DNA of 63,153 bases from an uncultured Gammaproteobacteria bacterium (GTDB lineage Bacteria; Patescibacteriota; Microgenomatia; UBA12405). The translations under genes and the position numbers were made by a program. Location: the NCBI GenBank assembly GCA_964497945.1, contig CAZCFJ010000001.1:1-63153 (forward strand). Direction: 5' to 3'. This document shows positions 20,306-58,220 of this stretch, piece after piece (within the stretch, counting starts at the first letter, position 1; every line of letters starts with the position of its first letter). The notes below the pieces were generated by a model. It was given only the letters and a program-made list of their open reading frames with translations, did no database searches and was not told the DNA's origin.

Positions 20306-20316
20306 CTCAAATACCT

Positions 20317-20808: not shown

Positions 20809-20810
20809 AA

Positions 20811-22359: not shown

Positions 22360-22363
22360 TCTG

Positions 22364-23545: not shown

Positions 23546-23579
23546 CTTCAGCCAAAGGCTGATCCGCCTCTGGCGGAAA

Positions 23580-23612: not shown

Positions 23613-23634
23613 ATATGTTTTTCTAAGATCTAAA

Positions 23635-26581: not shown

Positions 26582-26596
26582 ATTCAACTTATTTTG

Positions 26597-26602
26597 TATA
26601 AT
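26597..26602 (+). promoter_or_regulatory. Candidate internal -10 box (TATAAT) 6 nt upstream of ATG 26609
   Basis: ttgTATAATaaaactATG read directly. Confidence 0.3.
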
Positions 26603-26608
26603 AAAACT

Positions 26609-30130: not shown

Positions 30131-30135
30131 TCTTT

Positions 30136-35032: not shown

Positions 35033-35053
35033 TAAACTTACATTATTAAACTT

Positions 35054-35989: not shown

Positions 35990-35996
35990 TTTATCT

Positions 35997-37711: not shown

Positions 37712-37726
37712 GGTATTATAAAGTTA

Positions 37727-38908: not shown

Positions 38909-38909
38909 A

Positions 38910-41648: not shown

Positions 41649-41673
41649 ATACAACACCGTTATATTGCACTTT

Positions 41674-42993
41674 ATGAAAAAGTTTTTTTTATTTTCTTTT
41701 TTTATAATCTTTTCTTTAATACTACGGATATTTATTTCTATCAATATTAAACCCCAAGGAGATGTTCTTATTCACCAAGAATGGGCTGAAGTCTTATACC
41801 ACAAAGGTTTATCAGGATCATATTTTTCTCAAGGTTGGACTTACACACCCCCAACTCAACCCCCTTTAATGATGATGTCGTATTTTATTTCTCATCTTAT
41901 CTACGAAAATCGTAATATTTTCTCTTTACTTCATAACTACACCAAAATTCCACCTGCTTCTATTTTAATTGGCTTTCAAAAATATGGTGAAATTCTTACT
42001 CTTAGGATCTGGGAATTTATTGCCTGCATTATTTCTGGTTTAATTATTTACTTTCATTTTTCCAAAAAAACTTCATTTAAAAAATCATTCATAATTTTTT
42101 TGTTAATAATTTTTAACCCTATTACGATTTTCATCAATTCAGTTTGGGGTCAAAATGATTTATTGCCAACTTGTTTCCTTTATTTATCATTCCTTCTACT
42201 TTTCTCTCCATTTAACATTTTAAGTCCAATAATTTTTTCTATTGGTATTTTATTTAAACCAACAATTGCCATTATTTCTCCTTTATTTATATGTATTTTT
42301 TTATACATATTACATAAAAACAATTTAAAAAATAAAATAACCAAACTAATCTTAGTTGTTATTTCAATAATTACTCTAGTTTATATTTCTTTTAAGCCCT
42401 TTATTCCATTAAAAATGGAACCAACTAATTATATTTTCAATGTTGTTGCTAACCGAATTAGTACTTCATCAAAAGGTCTTAAAATAGCCTCAGTTTCTGC
42501 TTTTAATTTGTATTCGCTTATTTTTAACATTGATCAGACATATGCCACTAATGACAATTTTATGATTCAACTATGTGATGTCGGAACCATTTTTTATATT
42601 ATTCTCAATATTTATTTTATTTTTAAATTAATTCGATCAAAAAAAGTTACCTTTAATCATACCTTATTTTCCATTTATTTTATTTCTCAAGGATCATTTT
42701 TGTTTACAACTAACATGTTAGAAAGATATTTTATTCCTGCATTTTTATCCGCTGTTGTTATAACCGTAATTTATTGGAAAAGATTTGGTTGGCTTATGGT
42801 CCTTCAACAAATAATCTGGTTTATAAATCTTATTTATGCCTACTACTATCGAGTCAACGAATCAATCAATCACCTTTTTCGGGATAATTATTTCCTTTTA
42901 ATTAGATTATTTTCTCTTGCTAATATTTTTATATTTATACGTCTCTTTCAGAGATATAAAAAATATTTTTCCATAAATAAAAAGATTGATTAA
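41674..42993 (+). CDS. Polytopic membrane protein, second GT-C-like family (WGQxD / xERY motifs)
   Basis: Contains VWGQNDLLP and NMLERYFIPAF. The N-terminus is similar to 42907c and 46863. Confidence 0.55.
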   Translation: MKKFFLFSFFIIFSLILRIFISINIKPQGDVLIHQEWAEVLYHKGLSGSYFSQGWTYTPPTQPPLMMMSYFISHLIYENRNIFSLLHNYTKIPPASILIGFQKYGEILTLRIWEFIACIISGLIIYFHFSKKTSFKKSFIIFLLIIFNPITIFINSVWGQNDLLPTCFLYLSFLLLFSPFNILSPIIFSIGILFKPTIAIISPLFICIFLYILHKNNLKNKITKLILVVISIITLVYISFKPFIPLKMEPTNYIFNVVANRISTSSKGLKIASVSAFNLYSLIFNIDQTYATNDNFMIQLCDVGTIFYIILNIYFIFKLIRSKKVTFNHTLFSIYFISQGSFLFTTNMLERYFIPAFLSAVVITVIYWKRFGWLMVLQQIIWFINLIYAYYYRVNESINHLFRDNYFLLIRLFSLANIFIFIRLFQRYKKYFSINKKID

Positions 42994-44259
42994 AGATAAG
43001 AGTTTTGGAATTATTTGATTTGACCAACCAAAGATATTTTTTATTCCATCAAGCTGCTGAGGAACAGAAAAAACATAAAACATACTTAAGAAGTAAATTA
43101 TCGACAATATGACAAAATATTTCCAATAATCTCTCTTGTAAATTGAATAAAATAATAATGCAACCATTCCAAAAAAAGCATATCTTTCGTGCATTCCAGT
43201 CATAAAAAGCCAACCGCCAAAACCGGTTGTAAAAATCGACAAAAATACCGTCTCTAGCTTTTTGTATTTTACTAATCTAAAGGATAGTAAAGAAATTATC
43301 CCCAGTAAAATCCAACCCCATGTTTTTGCTGTCAAAAACAAATATCTTGTCGTTTCAAACCCAACCTTACTTGGAAAAGGAAAAAACAAATACCAAAAAT
43401 TAAACGAGTTTTGATTAATCAATCCTTCACTAGTATTTAACCTTTTTGCCAACAAAAAGAATAAATCCGTAATTTTTCCAGCATTAAACCAAGTCATCGT
43501 CCAAAGGCTAAAAATTCCAGCCAACAAACCACCTAACAACAAATTTCTCCATGGTTGTTTTTGTTTAAACCAGATAAATAAAAACAACGGAAATAAAATT
43601 ATACAATCAGGCTTTAAATTAATTGCCGTTGCATAAAATAACGGAGACCAAATAGAACGCTTAGTTGTTAAAAAAATAAAAGATAATATCAAAAATAAAA
43701 ATGATAGTTGATCAGATTGACCCCAAATAGCCGACAAATACCAAGAGAATGGCAACAATAAATATGCCAAAACAAACTTCTTCCAATCAACTTTTTTAAT
43801 TTTACAAACCTTATAAATTATCCCAGCAATCAAAAAATCAGCTAAAACCATAATTTGCTTGATCACTATAATCACTCCTACTAAATATTCAGTATTTTCA
43901 TACCTTGCCGTACCAAACCATTTAATAAAATTAAAAAACCAAATAAACTTAGTTGGTGCTAAACGATGCAAAGCTATAAAGTTTCCCCAGCTAGACATTA
44001 ACCACATCAACAAACTATGTATCTTATAAGCCTCAAAATAAATCCAACTAATTAATGGTGGATGGTTTGGCCAAATACATCCCCACTTATTCCAGTTATA
44101 CAAACCTTTTGTTCCTCCGTTAACATACATCCATTTTCCCCATTCAACTTGAATCCTGAGATCGCTATGAGCTGGTAAAAAAGACAATCCAAATCTCAAT
44201 AAAAACAGGAATAAAACCACAACAATCTTTTTTTTATTTTTTTTAAACCACCAATTCAT
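42907..44259 (-). CDS. Polytopic membrane protein, second GT-C-like family; the only minus-strand gene inside the cluster
   Basis: Contains IWGQSDQLSF, GMHERYAFFG and NHPPLISWIYF. Its 3' end overlaps the 3' end of the convergent 41674 gene by 87 nt. Confidence 0.55.
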   Translation of the reverse strand: MNWWFKKNKKKIVVVLFLFLLRFGLSFLPAHSDLRIQVEWGKWMYVNGGTKGLYNWNKWGCIWPNHPPLISWIYFEAYKIHSLLMWLMSSWGNFIALHRLAPTKFIWFFNFIKWFGTARYENTEYLVGVIIVIKQIMVLADFLIAGIIYKVCKIKKVDWKKFVLAYLLLPFSWYLSAIWGQSDQLSFLFLILSFIFLTTKRSIWSPLFYATAINLKPDCIILFPLFLFIWFKQKQPWRNLLLGGLLAGIFSLWTMTWFNAGKITDLFFLLAKRLNTSEGLINQNSFNFWYLFFPFPSKVGFETTRYLFLTAKTWGWILLGIISLLSFRLVKYKKLETVFLSIFTTGFGGWLFMTGMHERYAFFGMVALLFYSIYKRDYWKYFVILSIIYFLSMFYVFSVPQQLDGIKNIFGWSNQIIPKLLSLINLFIYGKIFFISLKETYKYKNISKRK

Positions 44260-44347: not shown

Positions 44348-46093
44348 ATGAAAAGCAAAAGTAAAATAATCTTATTCATTATAATCCTTGCCGCCGCAAT
44401 TCTTAGATTTTATCAATTAGATTCAATACCTTATCCCCTTAATGGTGATGAAAAAGCTTTTGGTTACTATGCATGGTCAATTTCTCATTTCGGTACAGAT
44501 GAATATAATAATCGATTTCCTTTGTATTTTCCTTCAATCGGGGACTATAAATACCCTGTATATGCTTATACTTCCGCCATTTTTTCCTTAATTTTAGGAC
44601 TAAATCCAATTCTTCCCAGACTCGTTTCCTCACTTGCATCTATTTTAATGATTCTCATAATTTATAATTTTTCTAAAATTCTTTTTAAATCAGAAAAAAT
44701 AGCCATAGTTTCGGCAACCTTACTGGCAATTTCCCCTTGGAATCTAACTTTCAGCCGTACCGCCTCCGAATCAAATTTAATGACATTCCTCTCTTTTTTT
44801 GGATTTTTCTTACTCTATAAATACTTTTTTGTTAGCTCCAAAAATAAACATCTATTTTTTTCTATTATTCTCCTCACACTTTCATTGTTTACCTATTCTG
44901 CAAGTAGAGTATTTATACCATCAATGTTATTTTGTATTTTTATTTCAACCATTTTTTTTGCTAAAAAAAATACTATTAAAAAATCATTTTTAATCTTTTT
45001 ACTAATTAGCCTTATCGCTATTGTTTCTTCCATCAACCCAGCTAGCCGAGCCAGAGCCAATGGTCTTTCAATTCTATCTCAACCAACCAATCGACAAAAT
45101 TGGATTTCTGAATCAACCTATACATTAGGTTTAGGCCAACCAACAAATCCCATTATTACCCGACTTTTTTTTAATAAAGCTACTGGTCTTTTAAAAGAAT
45201 TTTCCCAACGCTATTTTTCACATTTTTCCCCCGATTACCTTTTTATTAGTGGTGATGTGGTTAAACTTAACGCTACTCATAATTTTGGTAATTTTTATAT
45301 TTTTGAGATTATTTTCTTTGCCATTGGAATTGCTTTATTAATTAATAGAGCATTCAAGAAAGATTTGCCTTCATTTTTAATCCTTTTTGGAATATTTATT
45401 AGCCCAATTGCTGCTTCAGTCACTGTTGAAACCCCATCGGCCGTTCGACAGCTTGTTGGTCTACCTTATTTTTTAATAGCCATTTCTCTTGGTATAGTTT
45501 TTTTAACTCAAAAAATAAAATGGTTGACAATTCCTATTTTCATCGTCTATTTTTACTTTTTTATTTTTCTTATTTTATCTATTTTTAAAATTAAACCTTA
45601 TCAACAACCATGGACTAGTGATCAAGGTAATGAACAATTAACAAATAAGACCTGGCAAATAAAAGACCAATATAAATATGTCTTTATACCAAATGATCCA
45701 TATATCGATTTTTTGTTTTACAAACAGATTCCACCACAAAAATTTTTATCTGAAGCAAAAATAGACCCAGAAGTAATTGGCAAATGGAGTCGTGTTTTAC
45801 AATATAAAAATATTATATTTAACTCAGATAAAAATTGCCCAAAAATAGGTCAAAAAAATGCTTTATACATTTGTATTGGTGAAGAAATTTCACCTTTTGC
45901 CAAAATAGTTGATATTATCAACTATAAAGACGGTAACCCTCACTATTTACTCATCGACTTTCCTGGGGGTGACCAATCAAGTCAAAATTTATCTGGAAAA
46001 ATTAAATACATAAAACCTCAAGATATGGATAGTAGATGGCCAAAAGGTATTTTTACTAATCCAAATCAGTACTATTTAAACTTAACTCTATGA
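44348..46093 (+). CDS. PMT/ArnT-like GT-C glycosyltransferase, paralog A of a six-member family
   Basis: Contains NGDEKAFGYYAWS, FPSIGDYKYPVYAY, ISPWNLTFSRTASESN and HFSPDYLFISGD, plus the C-terminal NDPYIDFLFYKQIPPQ. Confidence 0.75.
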   Translation: MKSKSKIILFIIILAAAILRFYQLDSIPYPLNGDEKAFGYYAWSISHFGTDEYNNRFPLYFPSIGDYKYPVYAYTSAIFSLILGLNPILPRLVSSLASILMILIIYNFSKILFKSEKIAIVSATLLAISPWNLTFSRTASESNLMTFLSFFGFFLLYKYFFVSSKNKHLFFSIILLTLSLFTYSASRVFIPSMLFCIFISTIFFAKKNTIKKSFLIFLLISLIAIVSSINPASRARANGLSILSQPTNRQNWISESTYTLGLGQPTNPIITRLFFNKATGLLKEFSQRYFSHFSPDYLFISGDVVKLNATHNFGNFYIFEIIFFAIGIALLINRAFKKDLPSFLILFGIFISPIAASVTVETPSAVRQLVGLPYFLIAISLGIVFLTQKIKWLTIPIFIVYFYFFIFLILSIFKIKPYQQPWTSDQGNEQLTNKTWQIKDQYKYVFIPNDPYIDFLFYKQIPPQKFLSEAKIDPEVIGKWSRVLQYKNIIFNSDKNCPKIGQKNALYICIGEEISPFAKIVDIINYKDGNPHYLLIDFPGGDQSSQNLSGKIKYIKPQDMDSRWPKGIFTNPNQYYLNLTL

Positions 46094-46887
46094 CATTTTC
46101 TATCATTATAGTTACCTGGAACACTGCCGAAATTACTAAAAAATGTGTTGAGACTATTAATAAGTATCTTCCTAATTCGGCCATTATCGTTGTTGATAAT
46201 GGTTCCAAAGATAATACCGTTGAATTACTTAGACCATTTAAAAATGTAAAGATTGTAGAAAATCACGCTAATCTAGGTTTTGCCAAAGCCAATAATATTG
46301 GTCTTAAATACACCAACACTGATTATATTGTTTTTATGAACTCTGATATCGAATTACTTGATTCTAGTCTTCTTAAGATGATTAACTATCTTCAACAAAA
46401 TCCTAAAATTGGAATTATTGGCCCCAAATTTCTCAATCCTGATTTAACCCCACAAGCCTCCGTTTTTCCTCCACAAACACCTCTTAATGCTTTTAAAGAA
46501 TTTTGGTTAAATCAAAAAGAGGCATATTCTAAATACATTCCAAAAGGGGATAATCCTAGTAAAGTTAGTTATATTTCTGGTGGCTTTATTGTTGTTAAAA
46601 AAGATTTTTTCCTCAAAATTGGTCAATGGAACGAAAAATATTTTTTCTATTTTGAAGATATGGATCTTTGTCGTCAAATAAAACAGTTTGGTAAAGATAT
46701 TGTTTTTTATCCAAAATGCCAAGTAATCCATCGTCATGGTGCTAGTGGAAAAAATTTAGCTCCAAATCAAGACCAATGGCGTCGACTCATCCCTAGTAGT
46801 ATTAAATTTCATGGATATTTCAAACACTATTTAATTAATTTTATAATTTGGTCTGGACAAAAATGGCAAAAAATAATCAAAAGATAA
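46090..46887 (+). CDS. GT2 glycosyltransferase
   Basis: Contains FSIIIVTWNT, VDNGSKDNT, MNSDI and FEDMDL. ATGA overlap with the upstream gene. Confidence 0.8.
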   Translation: MTFSIIIVTWNTAEITKKCVETINKYLPNSAIIVVDNGSKDNTVELLRPFKNVKIVENHANLGFAKANNIGLKYTNTDYIVFMNSDIELLDSSLLKMINYLQQNPKIGIIGPKFLNPDLTPQASVFPPQTPLNAFKEFWLNQKEAYSKYIPKGDNPSKVSYISGGFIVVKKDFFLKIGQWNEKYFFYFEDMDLCRQIKQFGKDIVFYPKCQVIHRHGASGKNLAPNQDQWRRLIPSSIKFHGYFKHYLINFIIWSGQKWQKIIKR

Positions 46888-48152
46888 GATCAATTTTACT
46901 TCTTGCCATTCTAATCAGAGTTATTTTGGTTTTTATTTCTGCTTGGCATCCGGATTTACCCAATCACATCGACTGGGGAAATCGTTTCCTATCTTACGGG
47001 CCTCGTAATTTTTATGAGAGTTCTGTTTGGAGTGTATCTTGGCCCAATCAACCATTTGGTAGTATTCTTCTTTTCGCCTCTATAGCCCTAATTAAAAATT
47101 GGCTTTTTGCTGGCATAATGTTTATTAATAACCATATTCCGGCTTTTCCCTCATTTATTATCCCTATCTTAGAATTAAAACTTCATGCTTGGTTAGTTAA
47201 ACTACCTTTTATTTTAGCCGATTTAGGTATTGGCTACCTTATTTACAAAACAGTTTTAGAACTTAAAGATTCAAAAATTGCCAGTATCGCCGCTTCATTT
47301 TTTTTATTTAACCCAGTCCTTATTTACAATTCTACAATTTGGGGACAAACTGACTCGCTAATAAATTTACTTGCTCTATTAGGATTTTATTTAGTCTTCA
47401 AAAAAAAATATTTACCAGGTATTATTCTTTTTCTCTCAACATTTTTGTTTAAACTTTCTCTTATTATTTATCTACCTATTTTTGGCCTTTTTCTACTTAA
47501 AAGAATTCAGGATTGGAAAAAATTTATCTTACCTATTTTGTTTTTCATTTTATTTATTTTCTGTTTAGCTATTCCTTTTACTTTTGATGGTAAAAATTCT
47601 TTTCAATGGCTTTGGTACATGTATACCAATCGTGTCTTAGTTAGACAGGGAAGTATGCTCAACGGCAATGCTTTTAATCTTTGGTCTCTTATTTTTAGTA
47701 TCGATATTTCCAAATCGGAATTTGGTCAATTCCTTGGTTTATCTTACCAGCTTATTGGTAGAATTTTATATATTATTTTCCTTATTCCTATTTGGATAAA
47801 ATTTTTTCGTTCGCCAAATAGTCTTATTAATCTACTCTCAGCTCTCACTCTTTCAACATTTGGTAGCTTTATTTTTCTCACTAACATGCACGAAAGATAC
47901 CTTTATCCAATTTTTCCGTTAATTACTATTTTAATTTTTCTTCCAAATTCATTTATTAAAAAAACCGATTTAATTATTTTATCTGTTATTCATTTTCTGA
48001 ATCTCTATAATCTTTGGTTTTATCCATCCATTCCCTTTATCAAAACCGCTCTAATAAGTTTCAACTTCCTTCTTTGTCGTTTTTTTTCATTTATACTAAT
48101 AATAATCTGCCTCAATTATTTGGTCAGATATCTAAAAAGTGAAATTAAATAA
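46863..48152 (+). CDS. Polytopic membrane protein, second GT-C-like family
   Basis: Contains AWHPDLPNHIDWGNRF, IWGQTDSLIN and NMHERYLYPIF. Confidence 0.55.
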   Translation: MAKNNQKIRSILLLAILIRVILVFISAWHPDLPNHIDWGNRFLSYGPRNFYESSVWSVSWPNQPFGSILLFASIALIKNWLFAGIMFINNHIPAFPSFIIPILELKLHAWLVKLPFILADLGIGYLIYKTVLELKDSKIASIAASFFLFNPVLIYNSTIWGQTDSLINLLALLGFYLVFKKKYLPGIILFLSTFLFKLSLIIYLPIFGLFLLKRIQDWKKFILPILFFILFIFCLAIPFTFDGKNSFQWLWYMYTNRVLVRQGSMLNGNAFNLWSLIFSIDISKSEFGQFLGLSYQLIGRILYIIFLIPIWIKFFRSPNSLINLLSALTLSTFGSFIFLTNMHERYLYPIFPLITILIFLPNSFIKKTDLIILSVIHFLNLYNLWFYPSIPFIKTALISFNFLLCRFFSFILIIICLNYLVRYLKSEIK

Positions 48153-49812
48153 ACTAAACGTCAGTTTAATCTTTCTTTTGGTTTTTTCATTAATTATTAG
48201 GTTAGTTAAAATTAACAACCTTAGTTTATTTAGTGATGAAATTGATGTTGGTTATCAAGCATTTTCTTTACTTAACACTTTTCATGATTATAAAGGTAAT
48301 TTTTTACCAATTTATATTCAATCACTCACAGAATCTAGAGCCCCATTATCAATTTATCTGACGATTCCTACCATAAAAATTTTTGGACTTAACACTCTTG
48401 GTGTTAGACTTCCACCAATAATTTTTGGTGTCATAAGTATTTTCTTATTTTATAAACTAATCCTTCTCCTTTCAAAATCTAACGCCCTAGCGTTCTATAG
48501 CTCCGCAGCTCTATCTTTTCTTCCCTGGCATTTTCAATATAGTCGGGCTGGGTTTGAAGTTACACTACTTCTTTCTCTCATTCTTGCTGGTACTCTTTAC
48601 CTCTTTAAATTTCAGCAACAACACAAGAACCGTTATCTTTATTTTGGTATTTTATTTTTTTGTCTTAGTTTTTATACCTACAACACCGCTAATATTTTTG
48701 TTCCTCTAATTATAATTTCCATTTTTTTTCTTAATTTCAAAGAATTTACTTCACTCCTCAAATTTAAAAATATTTTTATTTCCGGATTAATTTTTATAAT
48801 TATCACTCTTCCGCTACTTCAACAAATATTTTTTGGATCGGCCGCCAACCGATTTAGTCTAATTAGTATTTTTCATGACCAGTCTACCATTAATCAAATC
48901 ATTGAAAAAAGAACTTCATTTTCTGCTACTAACCAAAAAATAGAATCACTTTTTCATAATAAACCTATCGCTTGGTTACAAGTCTTTACTCAAAACTATC
49001 TCGCCAGTCTTTCTCCATCATTTCTATTTGTCCATGGTGATCAGTTAAATCTTCGTCATCAAATAACCGGTTTCGGCCTAATTTTTATTTCATTTTCCCC
49101 TTTACTTATTTTTGGACTTTTAGTAAAAAATAAACATTCTTTACTTAACAAATTAATGCTTTGTTGGTTATTTTTATCTCCAATTGCCGCCTCGTTGACT
49201 ATAAATGGTGGCACCCATGCTACTCGGTTATTTCTTATGACTCCAGCCTTAGCATATTTTATTGGTTCTGGAGTCTATTATTTAATTTATTCCCAAACCA
49301 AAATATCTAAACTAATACTAATTACAATTGTTTTAACAACAATTTTTGAAATAACCCAATTTTGTCATGAGTATTTTGTTCACTATCCAAAAAATTCTTT
49401 TGAAGTTTGGAATTACGGTTACCAAAATCTTTTTCAATCAATTCCCCAAAACTCAAATCATATTTACATTAGTAATACCACCTATAATTCACTCCTGCCA
49501 TATGTTTTTTATCAAAAATATTCGCTTAACCAAAAACAAATTCTCGACGATCTCAATCACCCAATCGACAACAATATGTCCGGATTTATTTTAGATTCTC
49601 ATACTACTTTCATTAACAACTGGGGCCAATCAGATGTTCTTCAAAAAATCAATCAAATTTCTCAATTTGGCGATACTTTTCTCCTTTTTCAAATTAAAGA
49701 TATTCCTGGAGATATGGATTTTTCTCAAAAACCACTTACAGGTTTTAAAACTGTCAAAACCATTTACAATCCTAACCATACTATTTTAGGTCAAGTTATT
49801 CAAAAACAATGA
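48139..49812 (+). CDS. PMT/ArnT-like GT-C glycosyltransferase, paralog B
   Basis: Contains FSDEIDVGYQAFS, FLPWHFQYSRAGFEVT and SLSPSFLFVHGD. GTG start with a 14-nt overlap. Confidence 0.7.
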   Translation: MKLNKLNVSLIFLLVFSLIIRLVKINNLSLFSDEIDVGYQAFSLLNTFHDYKGNFLPIYIQSLTESRAPLSIYLTIPTIKIFGLNTLGVRLPPIIFGVISIFLFYKLILLLSKSNALAFYSSAALSFLPWHFQYSRAGFEVTLLLSLILAGTLYLFKFQQQHKNRYLYFGILFFCLSFYTYNTANIFVPLIIISIFFLNFKEFTSLLKFKNIFISGLIFIIITLPLLQQIFFGSAANRFSLISIFHDQSTINQIIEKRTSFSATNQKIESLFHNKPIAWLQVFTQNYLASLSPSFLFVHGDQLNLRHQITGFGLIFISFSPLLIFGLLVKNKHSLLNKLMLCWLFLSPIAASLTINGGTHATRLFLMTPALAYFIGSGVYYLIYSQTKISKLILITIVLTTIFEITQFCHEYFVHYPKNSFEVWNYGYQNLFQSIPQNSNHIYISNTTYNSLLPYVFYQKYSLNQKQILDDLNHPIDNNMSGFILDSHTTFINNWGQSDVLQKINQISQFGDTFLLFQIKDIPGDMDFSQKPLTGFKTVKTIYNPNHTILGQVIQKQ

Positions 49813-51458
49813 AAAATAAAATTATACTAATCGTAATCATTATTTTAGGTGCTTTTTTAAGGTTAATTAATCTAGGTAATCTTCCTAATGCCTTCTCTCC
49901 TGATGAATTAGCCCAAGGCTACACCGCTTTTTCTATTATCCAAACTGGCAAAGATGAATGGGGAAATACTAATTTATTTAATCTTCAATCATTTGGTGAC
50001 TATAAACCACCAATTCAGACCCTACTTATAATCCCTTCAATTAAACTTTTTGGTCTTACTCCATTTGCTGTTAGATTACCTAATGCAATTTTTGCCATAT
50101 TTACCATTCTTTTAACTTATCTTATCGCCGAAAATTTATTTAAAAACCCCAAAATTTCCCTTTTAAGTGCTCTTTTTATTAGTCTATCACCTTGGAGTTT
50201 ACCAATGTCTCGAATTGCTTTAGAAGCAAATTTAGTTGTCTTTATAATTTCACTCGCCACCTATATTTTTTTAAAGGCCAATCAAAAAAATAATCTTTTT
50301 CTATTAATATTCTCCGTATTAATTTTTAGTATTAGTCTTTTTACTTATCATTCGGCTAAAATTTTTACACCATTATTTTTAATCTTTTTGATTATTCATC
50401 AAAAAACTTATTCTAAACCAAAATTAATTTTTACTTCTATTATTCTTTTTTTCATCTTCTTTAGTCTTAATTTTTATCTTAATAATCAAATAAAATCAAA
50501 TAGAACAGGGGATATTGCTATTTTTAACCCTACTGATCATTGGTCGTATGTTTCCAATAGCCAATATGAAATTACCCAAAATGGTTTACCGTATTCTATT
50601 ACTAAAATATTTTATAACAAAATCGTCTATCTTTACGAAATATTTAGTCAAAATTATTTATCATATTTTTCCCCTCAATTTTTAATTACCCAAGGTGCCG
50701 GCGAAACTACCTACGGTATGATTCCGGGGTATGGAGTTCTCGGTATAATTCCTGGACTTGGTTTTGTTCTTTCATTGATTTTTTTAATTCAAAAAAGACC
50801 TTTAGAACAAAAAAAGAACCTTTTCTTTCTCCTTTTTACTCTTATGGTTCCACCACTAATTGCCGCCATTGCCAAAGGTCAATATTCAGCCAACAGAGTT
50901 TCTTTAATGATGCCTTTTATTCAAATTTTTGCCGCTTTTGGCCTCATTACTTTTATTTCAGAAATTAAACAATACCAAAAAATAGTTTACGTTTTTATTT
51001 TTTCAGTTTTTAGTTTTACTACCCTCATTTTTCTCCAAAGATATTTTTTTCAAGGAAACCAAATTTTAGCTGAAGGCATGCTTTATGGTCATCAACAAGC
51101 CAATGAATATCTTCAAAAAATTTCCTCCGATCATATTATTTACTCTCGAAAACTTTCTGAACCACAAGCTTATGTCAGCTTTTTCAATCAAGTTAACCCA
51201 AAAATCATCCAGTCAGAATCAACTAACTGGTCTCAATATCAACAAAGAGGGTTATCTTTTCTTGATCAACTCAGTGAATACAAATTAGGCAAATTTATTT
51301 TTAAAGAAATTAATATACCCTCAGATTCACAATTGCCCAACACTTTAATTATTGGTCGCCCCGAAGAGTTTCGCGATATAAAGCCTGACTATATCATTAA
51401 TTATCCTTCTAAATCAGAATTAAAACCGGCTATTTATATTTACCATACCAAAATATGA
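49809..51458 (+). CDS. PMT/ArnT-like GT-C glycosyltransferase, paralog C
   Basis: Contains SPDELAQGYTAFSIIQTGKDEWG, QSFGDYKPP and LSPWSLPMSRIALEAN. ATGA overlap. Confidence 0.75.
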   Translation: MKNKIILIVIIILGAFLRLINLGNLPNAFSPDELAQGYTAFSIIQTGKDEWGNTNLFNLQSFGDYKPPIQTLLIIPSIKLFGLTPFAVRLPNAIFAIFTILLTYLIAENLFKNPKISLLSALFISLSPWSLPMSRIALEANLVVFIISLATYIFLKANQKNNLFLLIFSVLIFSISLFTYHSAKIFTPLFLIFLIIHQKTYSKPKLIFTSIILFFIFFSLNFYLNNQIKSNRTGDIAIFNPTDHWSYVSNSQYEITQNGLPYSITKIFYNKIVYLYEIFSQNYLSYFSPQFLITQGAGETTYGMIPGYGVLGIIPGLGFVLSLIFLIQKRPLEQKKNLFFLLFTLMVPPLIAAIAKGQYSANRVSLMMPFIQIFAAFGLITFISEIKQYQKIVYVFIFSVFSFTTLIFLQRYFFQGNQILAEGMLYGHQQANEYLQKISSDHIIYSRKLSEPQAYVSFFNQVNPKIIQSESTNWSQYQQRGLSFLDQLSEYKLGKFIFKEINIPSDSQLPNTLIIGRPEEFRDIKPDYIINYPSKSELKPAIYIYHTKI

Positions 51459-53038
51459 AATCGACTAAAACATTAATTACTTTAGTTCTGGTTCTCGGCT
51501 TTATTTCTCGAATTATTTTTATTGGTCAATTTCCCCCTAGTCTCAATTGGGATGAAGTTTCCCATGGTTACAATGCATATTCCATCCTAAAAACTGGGCA
51601 TGATGAATGGGGAATGTTTTTACCAACTATTTTTCGATGTTATGGTGATTTTAAACTTCCGGTTTATATTTACTCCACTATTTTACCAATTTTATTTTTT
51701 GGACTAAACTCACTTTCCGTTAGATTCATTTCCATTTTATCTGGCAGTTTAACCCCTTTGATTATTTTTTTAATTCTAAAAAAACTTACTCCCCATCAAA
51801 AAATTCTCCCTTTTATAGGACTTTTAATTACTGCTTTTTCACCTGGAACTATTTTTATTTCTCGAATTGCTCTCGAAGCCAACCTCTTTATGTTTTTATT
51901 TTGTCTTAGTTTTTACTTTTTAATTTCTCACAAATTCGGTTGGAGTAGTTTTATATTTAGTCTTTGTCTCTTTACTTACAACAGTAGTCGAGTTCTCTTA
52001 CCTTTTTATTTGCTTAGCCTTATTTTTCTTGTTTTTAAAACCAAATTTAATTTAAAAAAACATTTTCTCGTCTTTATTCCATTTATTTTGTTTAGCGGTT
52101 TAACCCTTTTTCAGACTCTAAATCAATCTGGCCAAGCTCGATATCAATGGGTTTCAATCCTTGACTCTGGTTCTATCAACCGTATCAATGAGCTTCGTCA
52201 AATTTATCCCAGGTTGTTAGTTAATAAAGTTACATATTTTTCCTTTAATGCGGCAAAAAACTACCTTAGCCATTTCAATCCAGAATTTCTTTTTTTCTCT
52301 GGTGGATCTAATTATCAATTTAGCCTTCCTAATTTTTATTTAATTTCACCTTTGTTGATTCCTTTTTTAATTTTAGGATTAATTTATTTGTTTAAGAACA
52401 AAAAACAACCATATTTATTACTTCTTCTTTTTTGGTTCTTAGCTTCACCAATTCCATCGGCTATTACTCGCGACGCTCCTCATGTTCTTCGTAGCATCAT
52501 TTTTATTCCAATTACTATTCTAATAATTAGCCTTGGGTTTAATTTTGCCCTTACTAAGTTCAAGTCTTTACCCATCTTTTACACTCTAATCAGCCTTATT
52601 GTTGGCCAATTTTTCTTTTGGCCCAAGTATATTGAATATTCTCAAAATTATTCCTCCTCATGGCAATATGGCTATCAACAAGCAATTGATTATATTAAGA
52701 ATCACTATCAAGGCTATGACCAGATAATCATTACCAAAAAATATGGTGAAGCCCACGAATTTTTACTTTTCTATTGGCCGTGGAATCCTCAAAATTATCA
52801 AACTGATAGTTCTAAAAACTGGGACTATCATGCCACTTGGTATTGGGTTAACGCTTTTGACAAATTTAAGTTTATTAATGATTGGGAAATCAAAGACTAT
52901 ACTCAAAATATCAAGCAGGATCAGAAAACCCTTTTAATTACTTCACCAAACAATTACAATCAAAGTAATACTAAACACTTAGAAACCATTAATTTTCTCA
53001 ATAACACACCTGTCTTTGAAATTTTGGAAATAAAATGA
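51455..53038 (+). CDS. PMT/ArnT-like GT-C glycosyltransferase, paralog D
   Basis: Contains NWDEVSHGYNAYSILKTGHDEWG, YGDFKLPVYIY and FISRIALEAN. ATGA overlap. Confidence 0.75.
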   Translation: MKSTKTLITLVLVLGFISRIIFIGQFPPSLNWDEVSHGYNAYSILKTGHDEWGMFLPTIFRCYGDFKLPVYIYSTILPILFFGLNSLSVRFISILSGSLTPLIIFLILKKLTPHQKILPFIGLLITAFSPGTIFISRIALEANLFMFLFCLSFYFLISHKFGWSSFIFSLCLFTYNSSRVLLPFYLLSLIFLVFKTKFNLKKHFLVFIPFILFSGLTLFQTLNQSGQARYQWVSILDSGSINRINELRQIYPRLLVNKVTYFSFNAAKNYLSHFNPEFLFFSGGSNYQFSLPNFYLISPLLIPFLILGLIYLFKNKKQPYLLLLLFWFLASPIPSAITRDAPHVLRSIIFIPITILIISLGFNFALTKFKSLPIFYTLISLIVGQFFFWPKYIEYSQNYSSSWQYGYQQAIDYIKNHYQGYDQIIITKKYGEAHEFLLFYWPWNPQNYQTDSSKNWDYHATWYWVNAFDKFKFINDWEIKDYTQNIKQDQKTLLITSPNNYNQSNTKHLETINFLNNTPVFEILEIK

Positions 53039-54690
53039 AATCAAATACCAATACCAAAATAATTCTTATTCTCATAGTTTTAATTGGCTTCTTTATCAGA
53101 ATTATTTTCTCTCAAAAAATTCCCTTACTTTGGGATGAAGCTGCCTTAGGTTACAACGCTTATTCCATTCTTCAAACAGGACGTGATGAATATGGTCAAT
53201 TTTTGCCAATTATTTTTAAATCATTTGGTGATTACAAACCCGGACTTTACATCTATCTTTGTTTACCCTTTATTAAGCTTCTTGGACTTAATGAAATTGC
53301 AGTTCGGCTACCTTCAATTATTTTAGGTTCATTATTACCCCTTTTTATCTATTTATTAATCAAAGAAATCAATCCTAAATCACATCATGTCGCTTTTTTA
53401 ACTGCTCTTATTACGGCTTTTAATCCTTACAATGTTCACTTTAGTCGTGGTTCCTGGGAAACCAATATTCTTACTTGTGAATTAGTTTTAGCCTGTTTCT
53501 TTTTTTATCGTTATCTCAATTCTCAAAAAACAAAATCATTAGTATTTTCTGCTACCATTTTTGGTCTATCACTTTTTACCTATCAAGCGGGAAAAATGAT
53601 CAGCCTTTTTATGGTTTTAATCCTTTTCATTTTAAATTTTCAAAAAATAAATACCGGTCTGCCCGGTAGGCAAATTAAAAAAATTATTACTGGATTTATT
53701 ATTCCCTTGGGAATATTCTCTTTACCCGTTGTCTATGGTTTGCTATTTAATAGCAACGCTAATCGACTTAAAGTTGTTAGCCTTTTTTCTTATCCTCGAT
53801 CTTCGTCTGAAACCCAAACAATTATTAATGAAACCAATAATTTGGATTATCAACTTTTCTACGGTCAGCCAATGTTTTTTTTGCGCAATTTTCTCTCCCG
53901 TTATTTCAACCACTTTTCTACAAAATTCCTAGCCTTTGAAGGTGACTGGCAAAACCCCCGCCATTCAGCCCCATATCTCGGTGTTCTTCTTTATCCCAGT
54001 TTAATCTTTTTATTTATTGGACTGTTTTCCGGTTATACTCGAGAAAAAATTGAAAAACTCAATATTTTCTTCCTTCTTTGGTTATTAGTTGCTCCCATTC
54101 CTTCAGCCCTAACCCGTGATTCTGTTCAATCCGTCAGAGCTATGTCATTATCTATTCCCTTAGTTTATTTCATTGGTTTAGGAATTTATACTTTCTTCGA
54201 AAAATTCAAATCAAATATCCTTAAAATGATAATTATCGGGGTTTATATAATCTCTTTTGCTTACTATAGCGACCTTTATCTTAATCATATGGTTATCAAA
54301 TCACCCTATGATTTTCTTTATGGTTACAAACAAGCCATGGAATTTATAAATAAAAATCAAGCTAATTATCAGCACATTACTTTTACTGATTTTTACGGTC
54401 AACCATACATCTATTATCTTTTTTACTCCCAATATCCTCCTCAAATCTATCAACAACAAGCCAAACTTACCGATGATTCTCTGGATACCGGTAAAATCCC
54501 TTCGGTCGATAAAATTAATTTTGGCACTCCTAATTTTGATACTATCAAACAAACTCCCCATTCTTTAGGTATTTTTTCTCAAGAAGAAATTTATCGGCAG
54601 GGGATTGATAAAAATCCAGAATTCTCCAAATTTAAACCATTAAGTCCAATTGGTAATATTTCTACTTTTTACGCTTGTGAAAATCCTTAA
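53035..54690 (+). CDS. PMT/ArnT-like GT-C glycosyltransferase, paralog E
   Basis: Contains LWDEAALGYNAYSILQTGRDEYG, KSFGDYKPGLYIY and DFYGQPYIYYLFYSQYPPQ. ATGA overlap. Confidence 0.75.
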   Translation: MKSNTNTKIILILIVLIGFFIRIIFSQKIPLLWDEAALGYNAYSILQTGRDEYGQFLPIIFKSFGDYKPGLYIYLCLPFIKLLGLNEIAVRLPSIILGSLLPLFIYLLIKEINPKSHHVAFLTALITAFNPYNVHFSRGSWETNILTCELVLACFFFYRYLNSQKTKSLVFSATIFGLSLFTYQAGKMISLFMVLILFILNFQKINTGLPGRQIKKIITGFIIPLGIFSLPVVYGLLFNSNANRLKVVSLFSYPRSSSETQTIINETNNLDYQLFYGQPMFFLRNFLSRYFNHFSTKFLAFEGDWQNPRHSAPYLGVLLYPSLIFLFIGLFSGYTREKIEKLNIFFLLWLLVAPIPSALTRDSVQSVRAMSLSIPLVYFIGLGIYTFFEKFKSNILKMIIIGVYIISFAYYSDLYLNHMVIKSPYDFLYGYKQAMEFINKNQANYQHITFTDFYGQPYIYYLFYSQYPPQIYQQQAKLTDDSLDTGKIPSVDKINFGTPNFDTIKQTPHSLGIFSQEEIYRQGIDKNPEFSKFKPLSPIGNISTFYACENP

Positions 54691-56299
54691 ACAAATAATT
54701 CTTCCATTAATTTTAGTTATTGCTTTTTTAATTAGATTCATCGACCTTAATAATACTCCGGCATTAAATCCTGACGAAGCCGCTTTAGGTTACAATGCCT
54801 ATTCTCTCATTCTCACTGGAAAAGACGAACATGGCGTTTCTTGGCCACTTCACTTTAAATCTTTTGGCGACTACAAACCAGGCGGTTATGTCTATTTAGC
54901 CATTCCATTTATCAAAATTTTTGGTTTAACCCCAATTGCTACTAGACTTCCTAATCTAGTCTTATCTATTTTAACTATTTTATTTTTATATAAACTTGTT
55001 TTACTACTTACTAAAAACTATTTACTATCAAACTTGACCGCTTTTGTTTTGACTGTCAGTCCTTGGCACATTCATTTTAGTCGAGGTGCTTGGGAATCAT
55101 CAGCCGCATTAGCTTTTATTGTCATCGGAACTTACTTTTTCTTTAAATCAATCAAAGAAAAATTTTTGCTCAACTTTCTACTTTTTACTTTTAACTTTGT
55201 ACTTTCTTTGTACATCTATCATTCTGCCAGACTTGTTGCTCCACTTTTAGCTCTTAGTCTTTGTTGCCTTTATTTTAAATTTTTAATCAAAAAATTACCT
55301 CAAATAATTATTCCTATTATTTTTGCCGGAATTCTTGCCGCTCCAGTTTTATTTTCCTTTTTAAACAATGGTGGTACCGCTCGCATCGGTGGTGTTGGTT
55401 TAGGTGCCGATACTGGTCCAGCCAATAGATCAGAAGAATTACTTAACCAACATCAGGGTGTCAAATTAATCAATCGAGTTACTCATAACAAAAGAGTCCT
55501 TTATCTTATTTCTTGGGCCGAAAAATATTCTTCTCACTTCGATTTTAATTTCCTCGGTATTAATGGTGACGAAGTTCCCCGGTCAAAAGTTCCCGAAATG
55601 GGTCAAATTTATTTAATCGAAATACCTTTACTTCTCTTAGGTATTATTTTTATCCTCAAAACTAAAGAATTTAGTTCCAAATCTAAAATATTTATTTTTG
55701 CTTTTCTCTTCATTTCTCCCGTTGCCTCATCTTTAACCTTTCAAGCCCCATCGGCTCTTCGAGCCCTACCTATGGTTATTCCTATTACCATTTTCATTTC
55801 TTCTGGTATTTATTATTTTTTTGTTTTATTAAAAAATCTTGAATCTAAAATCTTAAATCCAATAAAAATAGTTTTTATTGTTATTTATGGTTATTTCATT
55901 GCCTATTATTTTGATTCGTATTTTCTCCACTACGCCAAACGTTATCCTTTTGCCTGGCAATACCAATTTAACCAGTTAGTTCCATATTTAGAAACTCAAA
56001 AAAATAATTATCAAAACATCTATATTACCGATAAATATGATCAACCTTACATTCTTTTCCTTTTCTTTTCTCAATACCCACCCCAAAATATTCAACCACA
56101 AATTAAATTAACCCAACCCGATAAATATGGTTTCTCTACGGTTTTGAGTTATGATAATTACCATTTTGGTAAAATTAATTGGGATCAAATTCCAAATGAT
56201 TCTCTGGTTGTTGCCTCAGATGAAAATGTACCACAACAACCTTACAAAATTATTTACTTTTCAAACAGTCAGCCAGCATTTAAAATTTATCAAAAATAA
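54677..56299 (+). CDS. PMT/ArnT-like GT-C glycosyltransferase, paralog F
   Basis: Contains NPDEAALGYNAYSLILTGKDEHG, KSFGDYKPGGYVY and DKYDQPYILFLFFSQYPPQ. GTG 54677 is preferred, giving MKILK... like the other paralogs. Confidence 0.7.
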   Translation: MKILKQIILPLILVIAFLIRFIDLNNTPALNPDEAALGYNAYSLILTGKDEHGVSWPLHFKSFGDYKPGGYVYLAIPFIKIFGLTPIATRLPNLVLSILTILFLYKLVLLLTKNYLLSNLTAFVLTVSPWHIHFSRGAWESSAALAFIVIGTYFFFKSIKEKFLLNFLLFTFNFVLSLYIYHSARLVAPLLALSLCCLYFKFLIKKLPQIIIPIIFAGILAAPVLFSFLNNGGTARIGGVGLGADTGPANRSEELLNQHQGVKLINRVTHNKRVLYLISWAEKYSSHFDFNFLGINGDEVPRSKVPEMGQIYLIEIPLLLLGIIFILKTKEFSSKSKIFIFAFLFISPVASSLTFQAPSALRALPMVIPITIFISSGIYYFFVLLKNLESKILNPIKIVFIVIYGYFIAYYFDSYFLHYAKRYPFAWQYQFNQLVPYLETQKNNYQNIYITDKYDQPYILFLFFSQYPPQNIQPQIKLTQPDKYGFSTVLSYDNYHFGKINWDQIPNDSLVVASDENVPQQPYKIIYFSNSQPAFKIYQK

Positions 56300-57129
56300 T
56301 GTTGAATAAAATGAAATCCGCACTTTCAGTCACTTTAGCTACTTATAACGAATCAAAAAATATTACCCGATGCTTAGATGCCATCAAAGATATTGCCGAT
56401 GAAATCATTGTTGTCGACGGCCAATCACAGGATAACACTGTGGAACTTATCAAAAAATTTAAACAAGCCAAAGTTATTTCTACCACCAATAAACCCATGT
56501 TTCATATTAATAAACAAATGGGTATTGATGCATGCCAAAGTAGTTGGATTCTCCAGCTCGATGCCGACGAAATCGTTACTCCAGAACTTAAAAAAGAGAT
56601 ATCTTCGATAATAAAAGTTAATCCATCAGAAATTAAAGAAAACGGTTTTTGGATTCCCCGGAAAAATTATTTTCTAGGAACTTTTCTCAAAAAAGGCGGT
56701 CAATATCCTGATCCTACAATCAGATTTTATAAAAATGGCAAAGCTCACTTACCTTGTAAAGATGTTCATGAACAAGCCGTTGTCGATGGTCAAGTTGGCT
56801 GGCTCAAAAACGACTTAGAACATTACGCTGACACTTCATTTTCTCTCTATTTACTTCGAGCCAATCGTTATACTACGCTTTTAGCAAATGAATTAAAAGA
56901 AAAAAATACCAAAATAAACTTTCTAAACTTTATAAAATTTTACTTTTTTAAACCAACTTGGTGGTTTTTAAAAACATTTTTCCGCCATCGTGGTTATGTC
57001 GATGGTTTTCCAGGATTTGTTTTTTCATTTTTTTCCGGACTTCGATTCGCTATTGCTTACACCAAATACTATGAATTAGTAAAAACTAAACGCGATATAA
57101 ATTTATCCCAAGACTGGGACAAAAAATGA
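56299..57129 (+). CDS. GT2 glycosyltransferase (same group as 35054 and 36920)
   Basis: Contains LSVTLATYNESKNI, VVDGQSQDNT and QLDADE, plus the C-terminal GYVDGFPGFVF..YTKYYE. Confidence 0.8.
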   Translation: MLNKMKSALSVTLATYNESKNITRCLDAIKDIADEIIVVDGQSQDNTVELIKKFKQAKVISTTNKPMFHINKQMGIDACQSSWILQLDADEIVTPELKKEISSIIKVNPSEIKENGFWIPRKNYFLGTFLKKGGQYPDPTIRFYKNGKAHLPCKDVHEQAVVDGQVGWLKNDLEHYADTSFSLYLLRANRYTTLLANELKEKNTKINFLNFIKFYFFKPTWWFLKTFFRHRGYVDGFPGFVFSFFSGLRFAIAYTKYYELVKTKRDINLSQDWDKK

Positions 57130-58220
57130 ATAAAAAAATAAGAATTGCTATTGATATTTCTCCTACTATTGACGGTAATGCTATTAGAGGAGTAGGGTAT
57201 TACACCCAAAATTTAGTCGATGCTTTACAAAAAGAAATAAAAACCAACCCAGATTACAACAACTGGTCTATTAACCTTATCAAAAATAGCCAAGAGCTAA
57301 AAGCTAATAGCTACAAGCTAATACATTATCCTTACTTTGATCCATTCAAATTAACTCTACCTCAAACAAAAGATATTCCTACAGTTATCACTGTCCACGA
57401 TCTCATCCCTCGCCAGTTTAAATCCCATTTTCCGGTTGGTATTAAAGGTGAATTTAAATGGCTTTTCCAAAAAAACCGTCTTAAAAAAGTTTCATCTATT
57501 ATTACTGTCTCCGAATACTCCAAAAAAATTATTAACCAAATAATTAAATATCCACTTTCCAAAATAACCGCCATTTATGAGGCTGCTGATTTTAGTTTCA
57601 AACAAACAAAAGATAAATCAAAATTAAAAGAAATTAAAAATAAATATTCTCTACCAGAGAAATTTGTTTTATTTGTTGGTGATATTAATTGGAATAAAAA
57701 TATTCCTAATTTAGTTAGGGCTTGTCTTAAAAACAAATATCCTCTAGTCATTGTTGGTTCTGCTGCCACCAAAAAAGATGTTCCTGACCATCCTTGGACA
57801 CAGGATCTTCGTTGGCTCCAGTCTAAGGCTCTAAAGATCCAACGTTCTAACGCTCTAATATTCACCGGTTTTGTCCCAGACGAAGACTTACCTCTTATTT
57901 ACAATCTTGCCACTATTTACTGCCAACCGTCATTTGCAGAAGGTTTTGGCTTACCATTACTTCAAGCTATGCAGTCGGGCTGTCCTATTGCCTTTAGTCG
58001 CGATACCTGTTTGCCGGAAATTATGGATAGTTGTGGTGTTTCATTTAATCCCCGTTCTGTTTCTGATATTTCCTCTGCTCTCAAAAAACTTTGGCTTAAC
58101 TCTAGTCTTCGTCAGAAATATCAAAAATGCGGTCTCCAAAGATCAAAATTCTTTAAATGGGAAAAAACTGCCAAACAAACCCTAAGTGTCTACAAAAGTT
58201 TACTTGGCTATGAAAAATAA
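57126..58220 (+). CDS. GT4 (GT-B fold) glycosyltransferase
   Basis: Contains FVGDINWNKNIP and EGFGLPLLQAMQSGCP. Confidence 0.85.
   Translation: MNKKIRIAIDISPTIDGNAIRGVGYYTQNLVDALQKEIKTNPDYNNWSINLIKNSQELKANSYKLIHYPYFDPFKLTLPQTKDIPTVITVHDLIPRQFKSHFPVGIKGEFKWLFQKNRLKKVSSIITVSEYSKKIINQIIKYPLSKITAIYEAADFSFKQTKDKSKLKEIKNKYSLPEKFVLFVGDINWNKNIPNLVRACLKNKYPLVIVGSAATKKDVPDHPWTQDLRWLQSKALKIQRSNALIFTGFVPDEDLPLIYNLATIYCQPSFAEGFGLPLLQAMQSGCPIAFSRDTCLPEIMDSCGVSFNPRSVSDISSALKKLWLNSSLRQKYQKCGLQRSKFFKWEKTAKQTLSVYKSLLGYEK

Follow-up and report, generated by a model that had tools for sequence, protein, structure and literature searches.

Organization of the array

We analysed a stretch of DNA of 63,153 nucleotides (nt) (contig CAZCFJ010000001.1, assembly GCA_964497945.1; hereinafter, the window), which contains six paralogous genes, denoted A to F, for putative polytopic glycosyltransferases of the GT-C superfamily. 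A preliminary description, made from the sequence alone, had placed six plus-strand open reading frames (ORFs) of 527-581 amino acids (aa) here, and all of them are present in the ORF list:

44348-46093, plus strand: paralog A, 581 aa, PMT_2-type GT-C with a longer C-terminal domain carrying a conserved Cys pair
48139-49812, plus strand: paralog B, 557 aa, GT-C, the fastest-evolving copy, with the Lys of the first extracytoplasmic loop replaced by Arg
49809-51458, plus strand: paralog C, 549 aa, GT-C, missing from a subset of related arrays
51455-53038, plus strand: paralog D, 527 aa, GT-C, a member of the D-E-F run present in most loci
53035-54690, plus strand: paralog E, 551 aa, GT-C, the copy chosen for the structure model
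54677-56299, plus strand: paralog F, GT-C, 540 aa from GTG at 54677 or 549 aa from TTG at 54650

The start of F is more probably the GTG codon at 54677 than the TTG codon of the mechanical ORF call, as the former yields the N-terminus MKILKQ, similar to that of the other copies, and the length of 540 aa, as in the closest orthologs.

Five of the copies (B-F) were correctly described as an uninterrupted tandem: the neighbouring genes overlap by 4 nt in the case of B/C, C/D and D/E, and by 14 nt in the case of E/F. A and B are separated by a glycosyltransferase family 2 (GT2) gene (46090-46887), whose start overlaps the end of A by 4 nt, and by the gene of a 434-aa polytopic protein (46848-48152). 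The base composition is even along the window. No tRNA or Rfam matches were found in the window, and the numbers of consensus promoters and terminators in it did not exceed the shuffle expectation.

Divergence of the six paralogs

All 15 pairs of proteins are alignable by BLASTP over approximately 390-560 residues, with 27-35% identity and E-values from 9e-30 to 5e-86. The top-scoring pair is E-F (269 bits, 34% identity over 526 residues; E = 6e-88 with F starting at 54677), while D and E are 35.5% identical (193 bits, E = 8e-58). Thus, E and F are the closest pair, as originally proposed, by score, but not by identity, which is slightly higher for D-E. A and B are the most diverged copies, again as proposed, A matching B-F with E-values of 2e-31 to 1e-41.

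The six-way alignment contains 25 invariant columns, among them the D-E pair, G-Y, S-R...E, one Tyr, two Arg, and several Gly and Pro. The five collinear blocks reported for the six proteins are all there, but B deviates in the second block, which reads SLTESRAPLS, with Arg instead of Lys, and blocks 3 to 5 are looser than had been stated. The homology extends beyond the low-complexity transmembrane (TM) segments, since the extracytoplasmic loops are conserved best: the frequency of the majority residue across orthologous clades is 0.52-0.65 in these loops vs 0.27-0.52 in the TM helices. Hence similarity arising from hydrophobic composition alone was rejected, the outer loops being the most conserved parts of the proteins.

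At the DNA level, the longest stretch common to the copies is 64 nt; it encodes the loop with the D-E pair (the DE loop) and is 63-73% identical. As no longer DNA repeats link the copies, both assembly duplication and recent gene conversion are excluded.

Orthologs, gene order and selection

Paralog E has more than 100 orthologs at 61-86% identity. All named ones are labelled Candidatus Shapirobacteria and are annotated as glycosyltransferase family 39 or phospholipid carrier-dependent glycosyltransferase. The host of the window is a member of Candidatus Shapirobacteria (Candidate Phyla Radiation, CPR/Patescibacteria). Paralog A has few close orthologs, approximately eight at 65% identity or higher, and an A-type copy at 66% identity is present in one of the related loci (L034). 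Its remote relatives (27-35% identity) come from Woese-, Davies-, Gottesman- and Levybacteria and from Parcubacteria.

To compare the arrays, one genome per GTDB species was scanned with the alignment of E orthologs, yielding 80 loci, and each ORF of at least 300 aa in these loci was assigned to the best-matching paralog of the window. As every locus is anchored on E, the presence of E in the loci says nothing about its prevalence. The genes beside E best match their positional counterparts in the window. The order B-C-D-E-F recurs at 35-89% identity and reaches genomes labelled Woesebacteria or Microgenomates at approximately 40% identity, and (B)(C)-D-E-F is seen in about 50 species-level genomes. 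The commonest pattern is BCDEF (n = 12), followed by ABDEF, CDEF and dBDEF; ABCDEF and BDEF are also observed. The array ends with D-E-F in 45 of the 52 loci with at least four copies, and with D-E, mostly at the end of a contig, in the other seven.

A neighbour-joining tree (Poisson distance, 40 bootstrap replicates) was constructed for 272 proteins, and the clades were compared with the gene positions relative to E:

B clade: bootstrap 100%; locus members at upstream positions -2 to -5
C clade: bootstrap 100%; 33 of 38 locus members at position -2
D clade: bootstrap 0.03; 51 members at position -1, plus extra copies
E clade: bootstrap 0.38; 51 members at position 0, plus extra copies
F clade: bootstrap 100%; 45 of 45 locus members at position +1

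Clade membership thus agrees with the position in the array, and a D-clade member adjoins E in 51 loci.

For all six copies, the ratio of nonsynonymous to synonymous substitution rates (dN/dS) against four related genomes is 0.06-0.24. It equals 0.14 for A; the fastest copy is B (dN 0.31, dN/dS 0.12-0.24), and the slowest one is F (dN 0.07, dN/dS 0.06-0.08). As dS is saturated, the true dN/dS values would be lower, if anything. The suggestion that this is an old, maintained expansion rather than an assembly duplication is supported by the clades, by the gene order kept in approximately 50 genomes and by the low dN/dS. The array is hence ancient, and its copies are maintained individually under purifying selection and are not interchangeable. 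D-E-F is the most widespread run; B, C and A would be accessory or lineage-variable steps.

One could also regard the array as a store of interchangeable decorating enzymes that serves surface variation and undergoes recent turnover, similarly to the phage-borne Gtr clusters altering O antigens. The upstream part of the array does vary: some loci lack C, some have additional B-, D- or E-like genes on one strand or the other, and few carry A. However, the order D-E-F, often B-C-D-E-F, is retained with each gene in its own orthologous clade down to approximately 40% identity, and the dN/dS values speak against a variable repertoire. Moreover, there are no inter-copy repeats longer than 64 nt, the base composition is even, and no mobile-element family was matched among the 43 window ORFs scanned against Pfam. 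(These are 43 of the 58 window ORFs of at least 120 aa; the other 15 are situated at 180-8257 or nested in larger ORFs.) We therefore consider this explanation highly improbable.

Three further observations concern the related loci. In five of them (L010, L012, L016, L013 and L042) an extra copy of approximately 538 aa, 30-33% identical to E or F of the window, is situated between the D- and E-type genes; thus, the array still gains members in some lineages. Many array-bearing contigs (L004, L006, L008 and others) are titled "uncultured Gammaproteobacteria", one is titled Candidatus Methanoperedens and one Clostridia (L045 and L074); as their gene content matches Shapirobacteria/Microgenomates, these titles look like placeholder names or mis-binning. 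Finally, one Shapirobacteria relative carries a 1098-aa ORF (L065:6640-9936, plus strand), in which an N-terminal half homologous to the product of window ORF 30136-31923 (34% identity, E = 2e-93) is followed by a D-type paralog as the C-terminal half; the junction contains neither a stop codon nor a run of N. This ORF may be a natural fusion tying the 30136 family functionally to the array, or a frameshift artefact.

Fold and enzyme family

The Pfam domains PMT_2 and/or PMT are found above the gathering cut-off in five of the six copies (A, B, C, E and F). The PMT_2 matches of A, B and C have E-values of 2.8e-8, 5e-11 and 1.8e-13, respectively; PMT (PF02366) is above the cut-off in C (1.9e-8), E and F (1.7e-5). 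The PMT_2 match of D is below the threshold (18 bits vs the cut-off of 26.1), but D is nonetheless a full-length homolog of E.

The AlphaFold2 model of E, for which 109 homologs were used, has a mean predicted local distance difference test (pLDDT) of 95.1 and a predicted template modelling score (pTM) of 0.94. In a Foldseek search of this model against PDB, all 23 matches at E <= 1e-3 are GT-C class A enzymes: STT3A (5.5e-7), ArnT (9.3e-7, with the highest template modelling score reached, 0.56), Pmt4 (1.8e-4), as well as PglB, AglB, ALG9 and EmbC. EmbA/B, AftD and AftB rank just past this threshold. Both the Pfam assignments and the structure search, which at E <= 1e-3 retrieved only GT-C class A enzymes, bear out the PMT/ArnT-like identity put forward for these proteins at the outset.

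The profile of the six sequences had no match among the PDB sequences, and the 109-sequence family profile was required to reach ArnT (5ezm, E = 1e-4). In the alignment of E with ArnT, K68 corresponds to the Lys of the K-P-P motif (K85), E142 to D158, and Y183 to K203 (the ArnT numbers assume a 3-residue offset of the deposited chain). K85 of ArnT contacts the phosphate of the lipid carrier (PMC7801869); the Lys aligned with it is conserved in the subfamily, with Arg in B.

The family is most similar to bacterial Pmt (GT39) by topology and motifs, and closest to ArnT (GT83) by sequence and structure score. Neither curated model recognises the proteins: for the Pmt equivalog NF058602 (cut-off 800 bits) the best score is 22 bits (C), and for the ArnT model NF009784 (cut-off 567 bits) it is 25.6 bits (C again), the other five copies having no match to either. 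Hence we do not file the six proteins in either functional family. When the six-sequence profile was compared with 1.84 billion cluster representatives, 36,479 proteins were retrieved at E <= 1e-3 and 6,132 at E <= 1e-30, the top ones matching nearly end to end; the subfamily, with its C-terminal domain, is thus large.

Topology and conserved residues

From the secondary structure of the model, hydrophobicity and charge bias we derived for E a topology of 11 TM helices with the N-terminus inside (approximately 5-28, 87-112, 117-138, 143-163, 167-179, 185-207, 211-238, 320-335, 341-358, 370-390 and 394-422). The parts outside the membrane are the loop 29-86, comprising two juxtamembrane helices and a hairpin, the long loop 239-319, and the C-terminal domain 423-551. 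In all six paralogs, the share of Lys and Arg is 27-44% in the loops assigned to the cytoplasm, compared to 5-10% in the short outer loops. The DE loop and the C-terminal domain are both extracytoplasmic according to this topology model, based on the positive-inside rule, and according to the alignment with ArnT; a cytoplasmic DE loop, which would have refuted the initial proposal, is thus not predicted.

D34 and E35 (numbering of E) are invariant in the six paralogs and in the 109 diverse homologs, and all six copies retain D-E, S-R...E, Y183, R244 and R368. The predicted active site would face outwards and be formed by Asp-Glu of outer loop 1, Lys or Arg opening the second juxtamembrane helix, S-R...E at the outer end of TM3, Tyr of outer loop 3, and Arg residues of outer loops 4 and 5. 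The possibility that some copies are pseudo-enzymes was rejected, as the catalytic residues are intact in six of six. Homology, predicted fold and conserved catalytic residues together indicate that all six proteins are intact GT-C class A enzymes.

We then considered positions conserved at 90% or higher over the B-F clades (n = 29). Thirteen of them are in outer loop 1 and none in the cytoplasmic loops; seven are in the TM helices, including three at the outer end of TM3, and the rest are in outer loops 3, 4 and 5 and the C-terminal domain. Positions conserved within clades but differing between them (n = 44) were collected with a relaxed criterion, as the strict one (at least 80% in all five clades) gave a single site. 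Outer loop 1 contains 11 of these positions, outer loop 4 contains nine, the C-terminal domain contains 13, and again there are none in the cytoplasmic loops. Both maps thus bear out the expected combination of a conserved catalytic and donor core and of variation between the paralogs in the outer loops and the C-terminal domain. This pattern is suggestive of, though not proof for, a common catalytic and donor site combined with paralog-specific recognition of the acceptor.

The adjacent paralogs might also form an obligate hetero-oligomer, as Pmt1-Pmt2 or EmbA-EmbB, in which some copies would be mainly scaffold or acceptor-binding subunits. Stop and start codons of neighbouring genes overlap, which suggests that these genes are translated together in fixed proportions. 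D, E and F adjoin one another in nearly all loci, and in one relative a single ORF joins a D-type copy to a homolog of 30136-31923. Judging by the titles of the Emb and Pmt entries in PDB, solved relatives dimerise likewise. Against a scaffold role, however, all six copies have the full set of catalytic and phosphate-binding residues, and none looks like a pseudo-enzyme. On balance we find obligate oligomerisation rather unlikely; it would be compatible with a separate catalytic step for each copy, the explanation preferred below, and does not exclude it.

C-terminal domain

The C-terminal domain of E (423-551) comprises approximately 130 aa. Modelled alone, on 38 sequences, it forms a small alpha/beta structure of approximately five strands and seven helices (pLDDT 91.2). 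The structure search against PDB yielded nothing significant (best E = 0.4, template modelling score at most 0.36), and neither a Pfam family nor a match among PDB sequences was found for this domain. When searched alone, it also fails to retrieve ArnT with its periplasmic domain. The domain had been tentatively expected to have a carbohydrate-binding fold, but with these features it is not recognisable as a carbohydrate-binding module (CBM). A homolog search with the domain alone gave short gene fragments from short contigs, with no new architecture or informative names. In the A-type copies it contains a conserved Cys pair, CPK-x(9-10)-C, which weakly fits an extracytoplasmic location.

The surrounding glycan gene cluster

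All six copies belong to a glycan gene cluster of approximately 38 kb (from 24376 to about 63056), encoded nearly entirely on the plus strand. Besides the array it contains approximately 12 GT2 genes, two GT4 genes and an FkbM methyltransferase gene. The GT-C content of the cluster had been understated initially: in addition to the six copies there are three PMT_2 proteins, four members of a second GT-C family and two polytopic proteins that may also be GT-C-like. The part of the cluster upstream of A (24376-44259) also includes further GT2 and GT4 genes. The following features accompany the array:

19186-20211: LCP-family protein (LytR_cpsA_psr), upstream of the cluster
25097, 27273 and 40215: more distant PMT_2 GT-Cs, having only the N-terminal core in common with the six paralogs
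31896-33338: Wzx-like flippase, Pfam Polysacc_synt_3
46090-46887, plus strand: GT2 between A and B, Pfam Glycos_transf_2, E = 6e-28
46848-48152, plus strand: 434-aa polytopic protein of a second GT-C-like family, with BLASTP matches to 28880-30130, 41665-42993 and 42907-44259 (minus strand)
56299-62432, plus strand: downstream block of GT2, GT4, GT2 (resembling polyprenyl-phosphate sugar synthases), GT2, B12-binding radical SAM protein and GT2

The second GT-C-like family consists of four paralogs of 416-450 aa (28880-30130, 41665-42993, 42907-44259 and 46848-48152). The relatives of the 46848 protein match Pfam GT87 above the cut-off and Alg6_Alg8 weakly, below the cut-off. The 46848 protein itself is weakly matched, in its N-terminal core, by the profile of the six paralogs (E = 5e-6). 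Its gene splits A from B, and 42907-44259 is the sole minus-strand gene inside the cluster. Two further polytopic proteins, encoded at 30136-31923 (595 aa) and 33296-35032 (578 aa), have 8-9 hydrophobic segments and flank the Wzx-like gene. Neither has a Pfam or NCBIfam match. In both, acidic or His-Asp motifs follow shortly behind the first TM helix, and either might act as a polymerase, a ligase or another GT-C enzyme.

Three related loci (L001, L002 and L003) have the same GT2-GT4-GT2-GT2-radical SAM-GT2 order downstream of F. The B12-binding radical SAM protein (59914-61419), which occupies the same position in these loci, shows a sub-threshold likeness to HpnJ (approximately 1e-36) and BchE (approximately 7e-33); from its place among the downstream GT2s, the pathway may include an unusual modification of a sugar. 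For the GT2s at 24376, 26594 and 58186, the best NCBIfam matches include ArnC, PgfS, PpgS, AglJ and dolichyl-phosphate hexose transferase, all far below the cut-offs. The Wzx-like Polysacc_synt_3 protein is the sole transporter-like candidate in the cluster. Upstream of the cluster, the region 19186-24264 encodes the LCP protein, FtsE/FtsX, a 404-aa protein with one N-terminal hydrophobic segment (22331-23545) and, on the minus strand, a DUF11 surface-repeat protein (23635-24264).

The gene content is relevant to the possibility that the six proteins are protein O-glycosyltransferases with a PMT-like function, each serving different secreted or surface proteins (pilins, S-layer), as the fungal PMT families do. 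This would be in line with the PMT matches above the cut-off in C, E and F, with the likeness to bacterial Pmt (PMC8698208) in the DE motif of loop 1 and the predicted number of TM helices, 11, with Pmt4 among the structural matches (E = 1.8e-4), and with the DUF11 protein close by. On the other hand, the score of the Pmt equivalog is 22 bits vs the cut-off of 800, ArnT and STT3 outrank Pmt as structural matches, and the known Pmt enzymes have no extra C-terminal domain. The company of approximately 12 GT2 and two GT4 genes, the Wzx-like flippase and the upstream LCP gene is the make-up of a polysaccharide pathway, and no Ser/Thr-rich candidate substrate was identified in the window. Protein glycosylation thus seems unlikely to be the role of the array.

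Possible function of the array

We consider it fairly probable that the six genes encode active, non-redundant GT-C class A glycosyltransferases, each catalysing a distinct step on one envelope glycoconjugate. The initial proposal, that every paralog would have its own acceptor or linkage and that the copies would work in succession on one polymer or on Ser/Thr-rich proteins, is plausible. Under this explanation of distinct steps on one glycoconjugate, the cytoplasmic GT2s of the cluster would load sugars onto polyprenyl phosphate, the lipid-linked sugars would be flipped across the membrane, and each paralog would move the sugar to its own position or acceptor in the glycoconjugate. The most probable acceptor would be a glycopolymer linked to the wall or to a lipid; the cytoplasmic GT2 and GT4 enzymes would make its core, which the Wzx-like protein would export. 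The LCP enzyme may then attach the product to the wall. The polyprenyl-phosphate-sugar donors and the distinct steps are suggested by the established chemistry of the family together with the content of the cluster; the conserved Lys aligned with K85 of ArnT and the GT2s resembling lipid-sugar synthases speak for such donors indirectly. The type of the donor, the acceptor and the logic of one step per paralog are all inferred.

Several points weigh against separate steps on one glycoconjugate. The three candidate lipid-sugar synthases are putative, being sub-threshold matches, and a flippase of the GtrA, SMR or MATE type was not found among the scanned window ORFs. All matches to curated NCBIfam function models (ArnT, Pmt, Agl23, LA_3751/2) score far below the respective cut-offs, and the names given to subfamily members go no further than a generic GT39/ArnT-like label. 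The distinct specificities are suggested only by orthology and by the location of the clade-specific residues, and the D and E clades are weakly supported by bootstrap (0.03 and 0.38). The predicted 11-TM topology is based on the reading of secondary structure, hydrophobicity and charge rather than on the model coordinates. Finally, a cluster with so many glycosyltransferases could make more than one product.

A bolder version, which we regard as doubtful, is that the B-F array, with D-E-F as its core, is an obligatory extracytoplasmic assembly line, possibly a physical complex, for an envelope polymer specific to Microgenomates, and that the C-terminal domain is an acceptor-binding fold not seen before. 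If so, the assembly line would be a functional counterpart of mycobacterial arabinan synthesis, and if these ultra-small bacteria are host-attached, the polymer could be the attachment surface.

The literature searches revealed no relevant paper on this array or on expansions of GT-C/GT39 enzymes in CPR bacteria. The five-gene order with its deep conservation, the C-terminal domain and the product are undescribed, while the enzyme class and paralogous GT-C sets are known; hence the finding overturns no current view. At the same time, there is almost no experimental knowledge of the cell envelope of CPR/Patescibacteria, which is the interface of these tiny, mostly uncultured bacteria with hosts and phages. 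That five outward-facing GT-C enzymes stay in order and under purifying selection across dozens of species speaks for a complex surface glycan that is typical of the lineage and is assembled mostly outside the membrane. The array also yields specific targets for further study: five orthologous enzyme families, their catalytic residues, 44 candidate specificity positions and one uncharacterised C-terminal domain.

Comparison with known systems

In bacterial Pmt, 11 TM helices are combined with the DE motif of loop 1, and functional residues lie in loops 1, 3, 5, 7 and 9 (PMC8698208). The proteins of the array have in common with Pmt (GT39; Rv1002c of Mycobacterium tuberculosis, Pmt of Streptomyces coelicolor) the Pfam domains PMT/PMT_2, DE in the first outer loop, and charged residues, both basic and acidic, that are conserved in outer loops 1, 3, 5 and 9; the predicted topology of 11 TM helices with the N-terminus inside also agrees with that of Pmt. 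Pmt itself uses a polyprenyl-phosphate sugar as the donor. In contrast to Pmt, our proteins have an additional C-terminal alpha/beta domain of approximately 130 aa and no long cytoplasmic N-terminus, and there are five or six clustered copies instead of one gene.

ArnT (GT83; 5ezm/5f15) is the best match among PDB sequences (E = 1e-4) and the second-best structural match (template modelling score 0.56). The Lys of K-P-P and the acidic residue at the outer end of TM3/TM4 are aligned, and both proteins have a soluble C-terminal domain outside the membrane. However, ArnT has 13 TM helices vs 11 in our model, and its acceptor is lipid A of Gram-negative outer membranes.

In three-component systems, a cytoplasmic polyprenyl-phosphate sugar synthase and a flippase are followed by a GT-C acting after export, and some of these GT-Cs have a C-terminal acceptor-binding domain (PMC11127046). 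The overall logic of the proposed pathway is the same as in GtrA/B/C, CsbB-GtcA-YfhO and GT136 systems. These systems have one GT-C each, as opposed to the five or six of the array plus at least seven of other GT-C families here; also, a small flippase was not found in the scanned window ORFs, and the candidate synthases are sub-threshold. In one of the related loci (L002), a YfhO gene is present upstream of the array.

EmbC-EmbA-EmbB (GT53) are likewise tandem paralogous GT-Cs with extracytoplasmic C-terminal domains and the class A fold (Foldseek E from 3e-4 to 1e-2). The Emb enzymes use a polyprenyl-phosphate sugar donor and act at different points of envelope glycan synthesis (PMC7305291). 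They carry more TM helices and beta-sandwich CBMs (PMC11127046). The differences are considerable: the Emb proteins have approximately 1,100 aa vs 527-581 aa here, only the membrane core is aligned (about 390-400 columns), the array comprises five genes rather than three and comes from another phylum, and its C-terminal domain is not recognisable as a CBM.

In its genetic arrangement, the array resembles both embCAB and the Rhizobium Rgt paralogs. The Rgt galacturonosyltransferases (RgtA-D) share a lipid-linked donor and serve several target positions, and RgtE also has a role in this system. RgtA and RgtB of Rhizobium leguminosarum each add galacturonic acid to the outer Kdo of Kdo2-lipid A (PMC4402001). 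The Rgt acceptor is lipopolysaccharide, and the only link in our data is the UniRef label "Glycosyltransferase RgtA/B/C/D-like" on one fragment. As several PMT_2-type GT-C paralogs, RgtA/B/C/D are the closest functional precedent for the use of one donor by several paralogs on one glycoconjugate.

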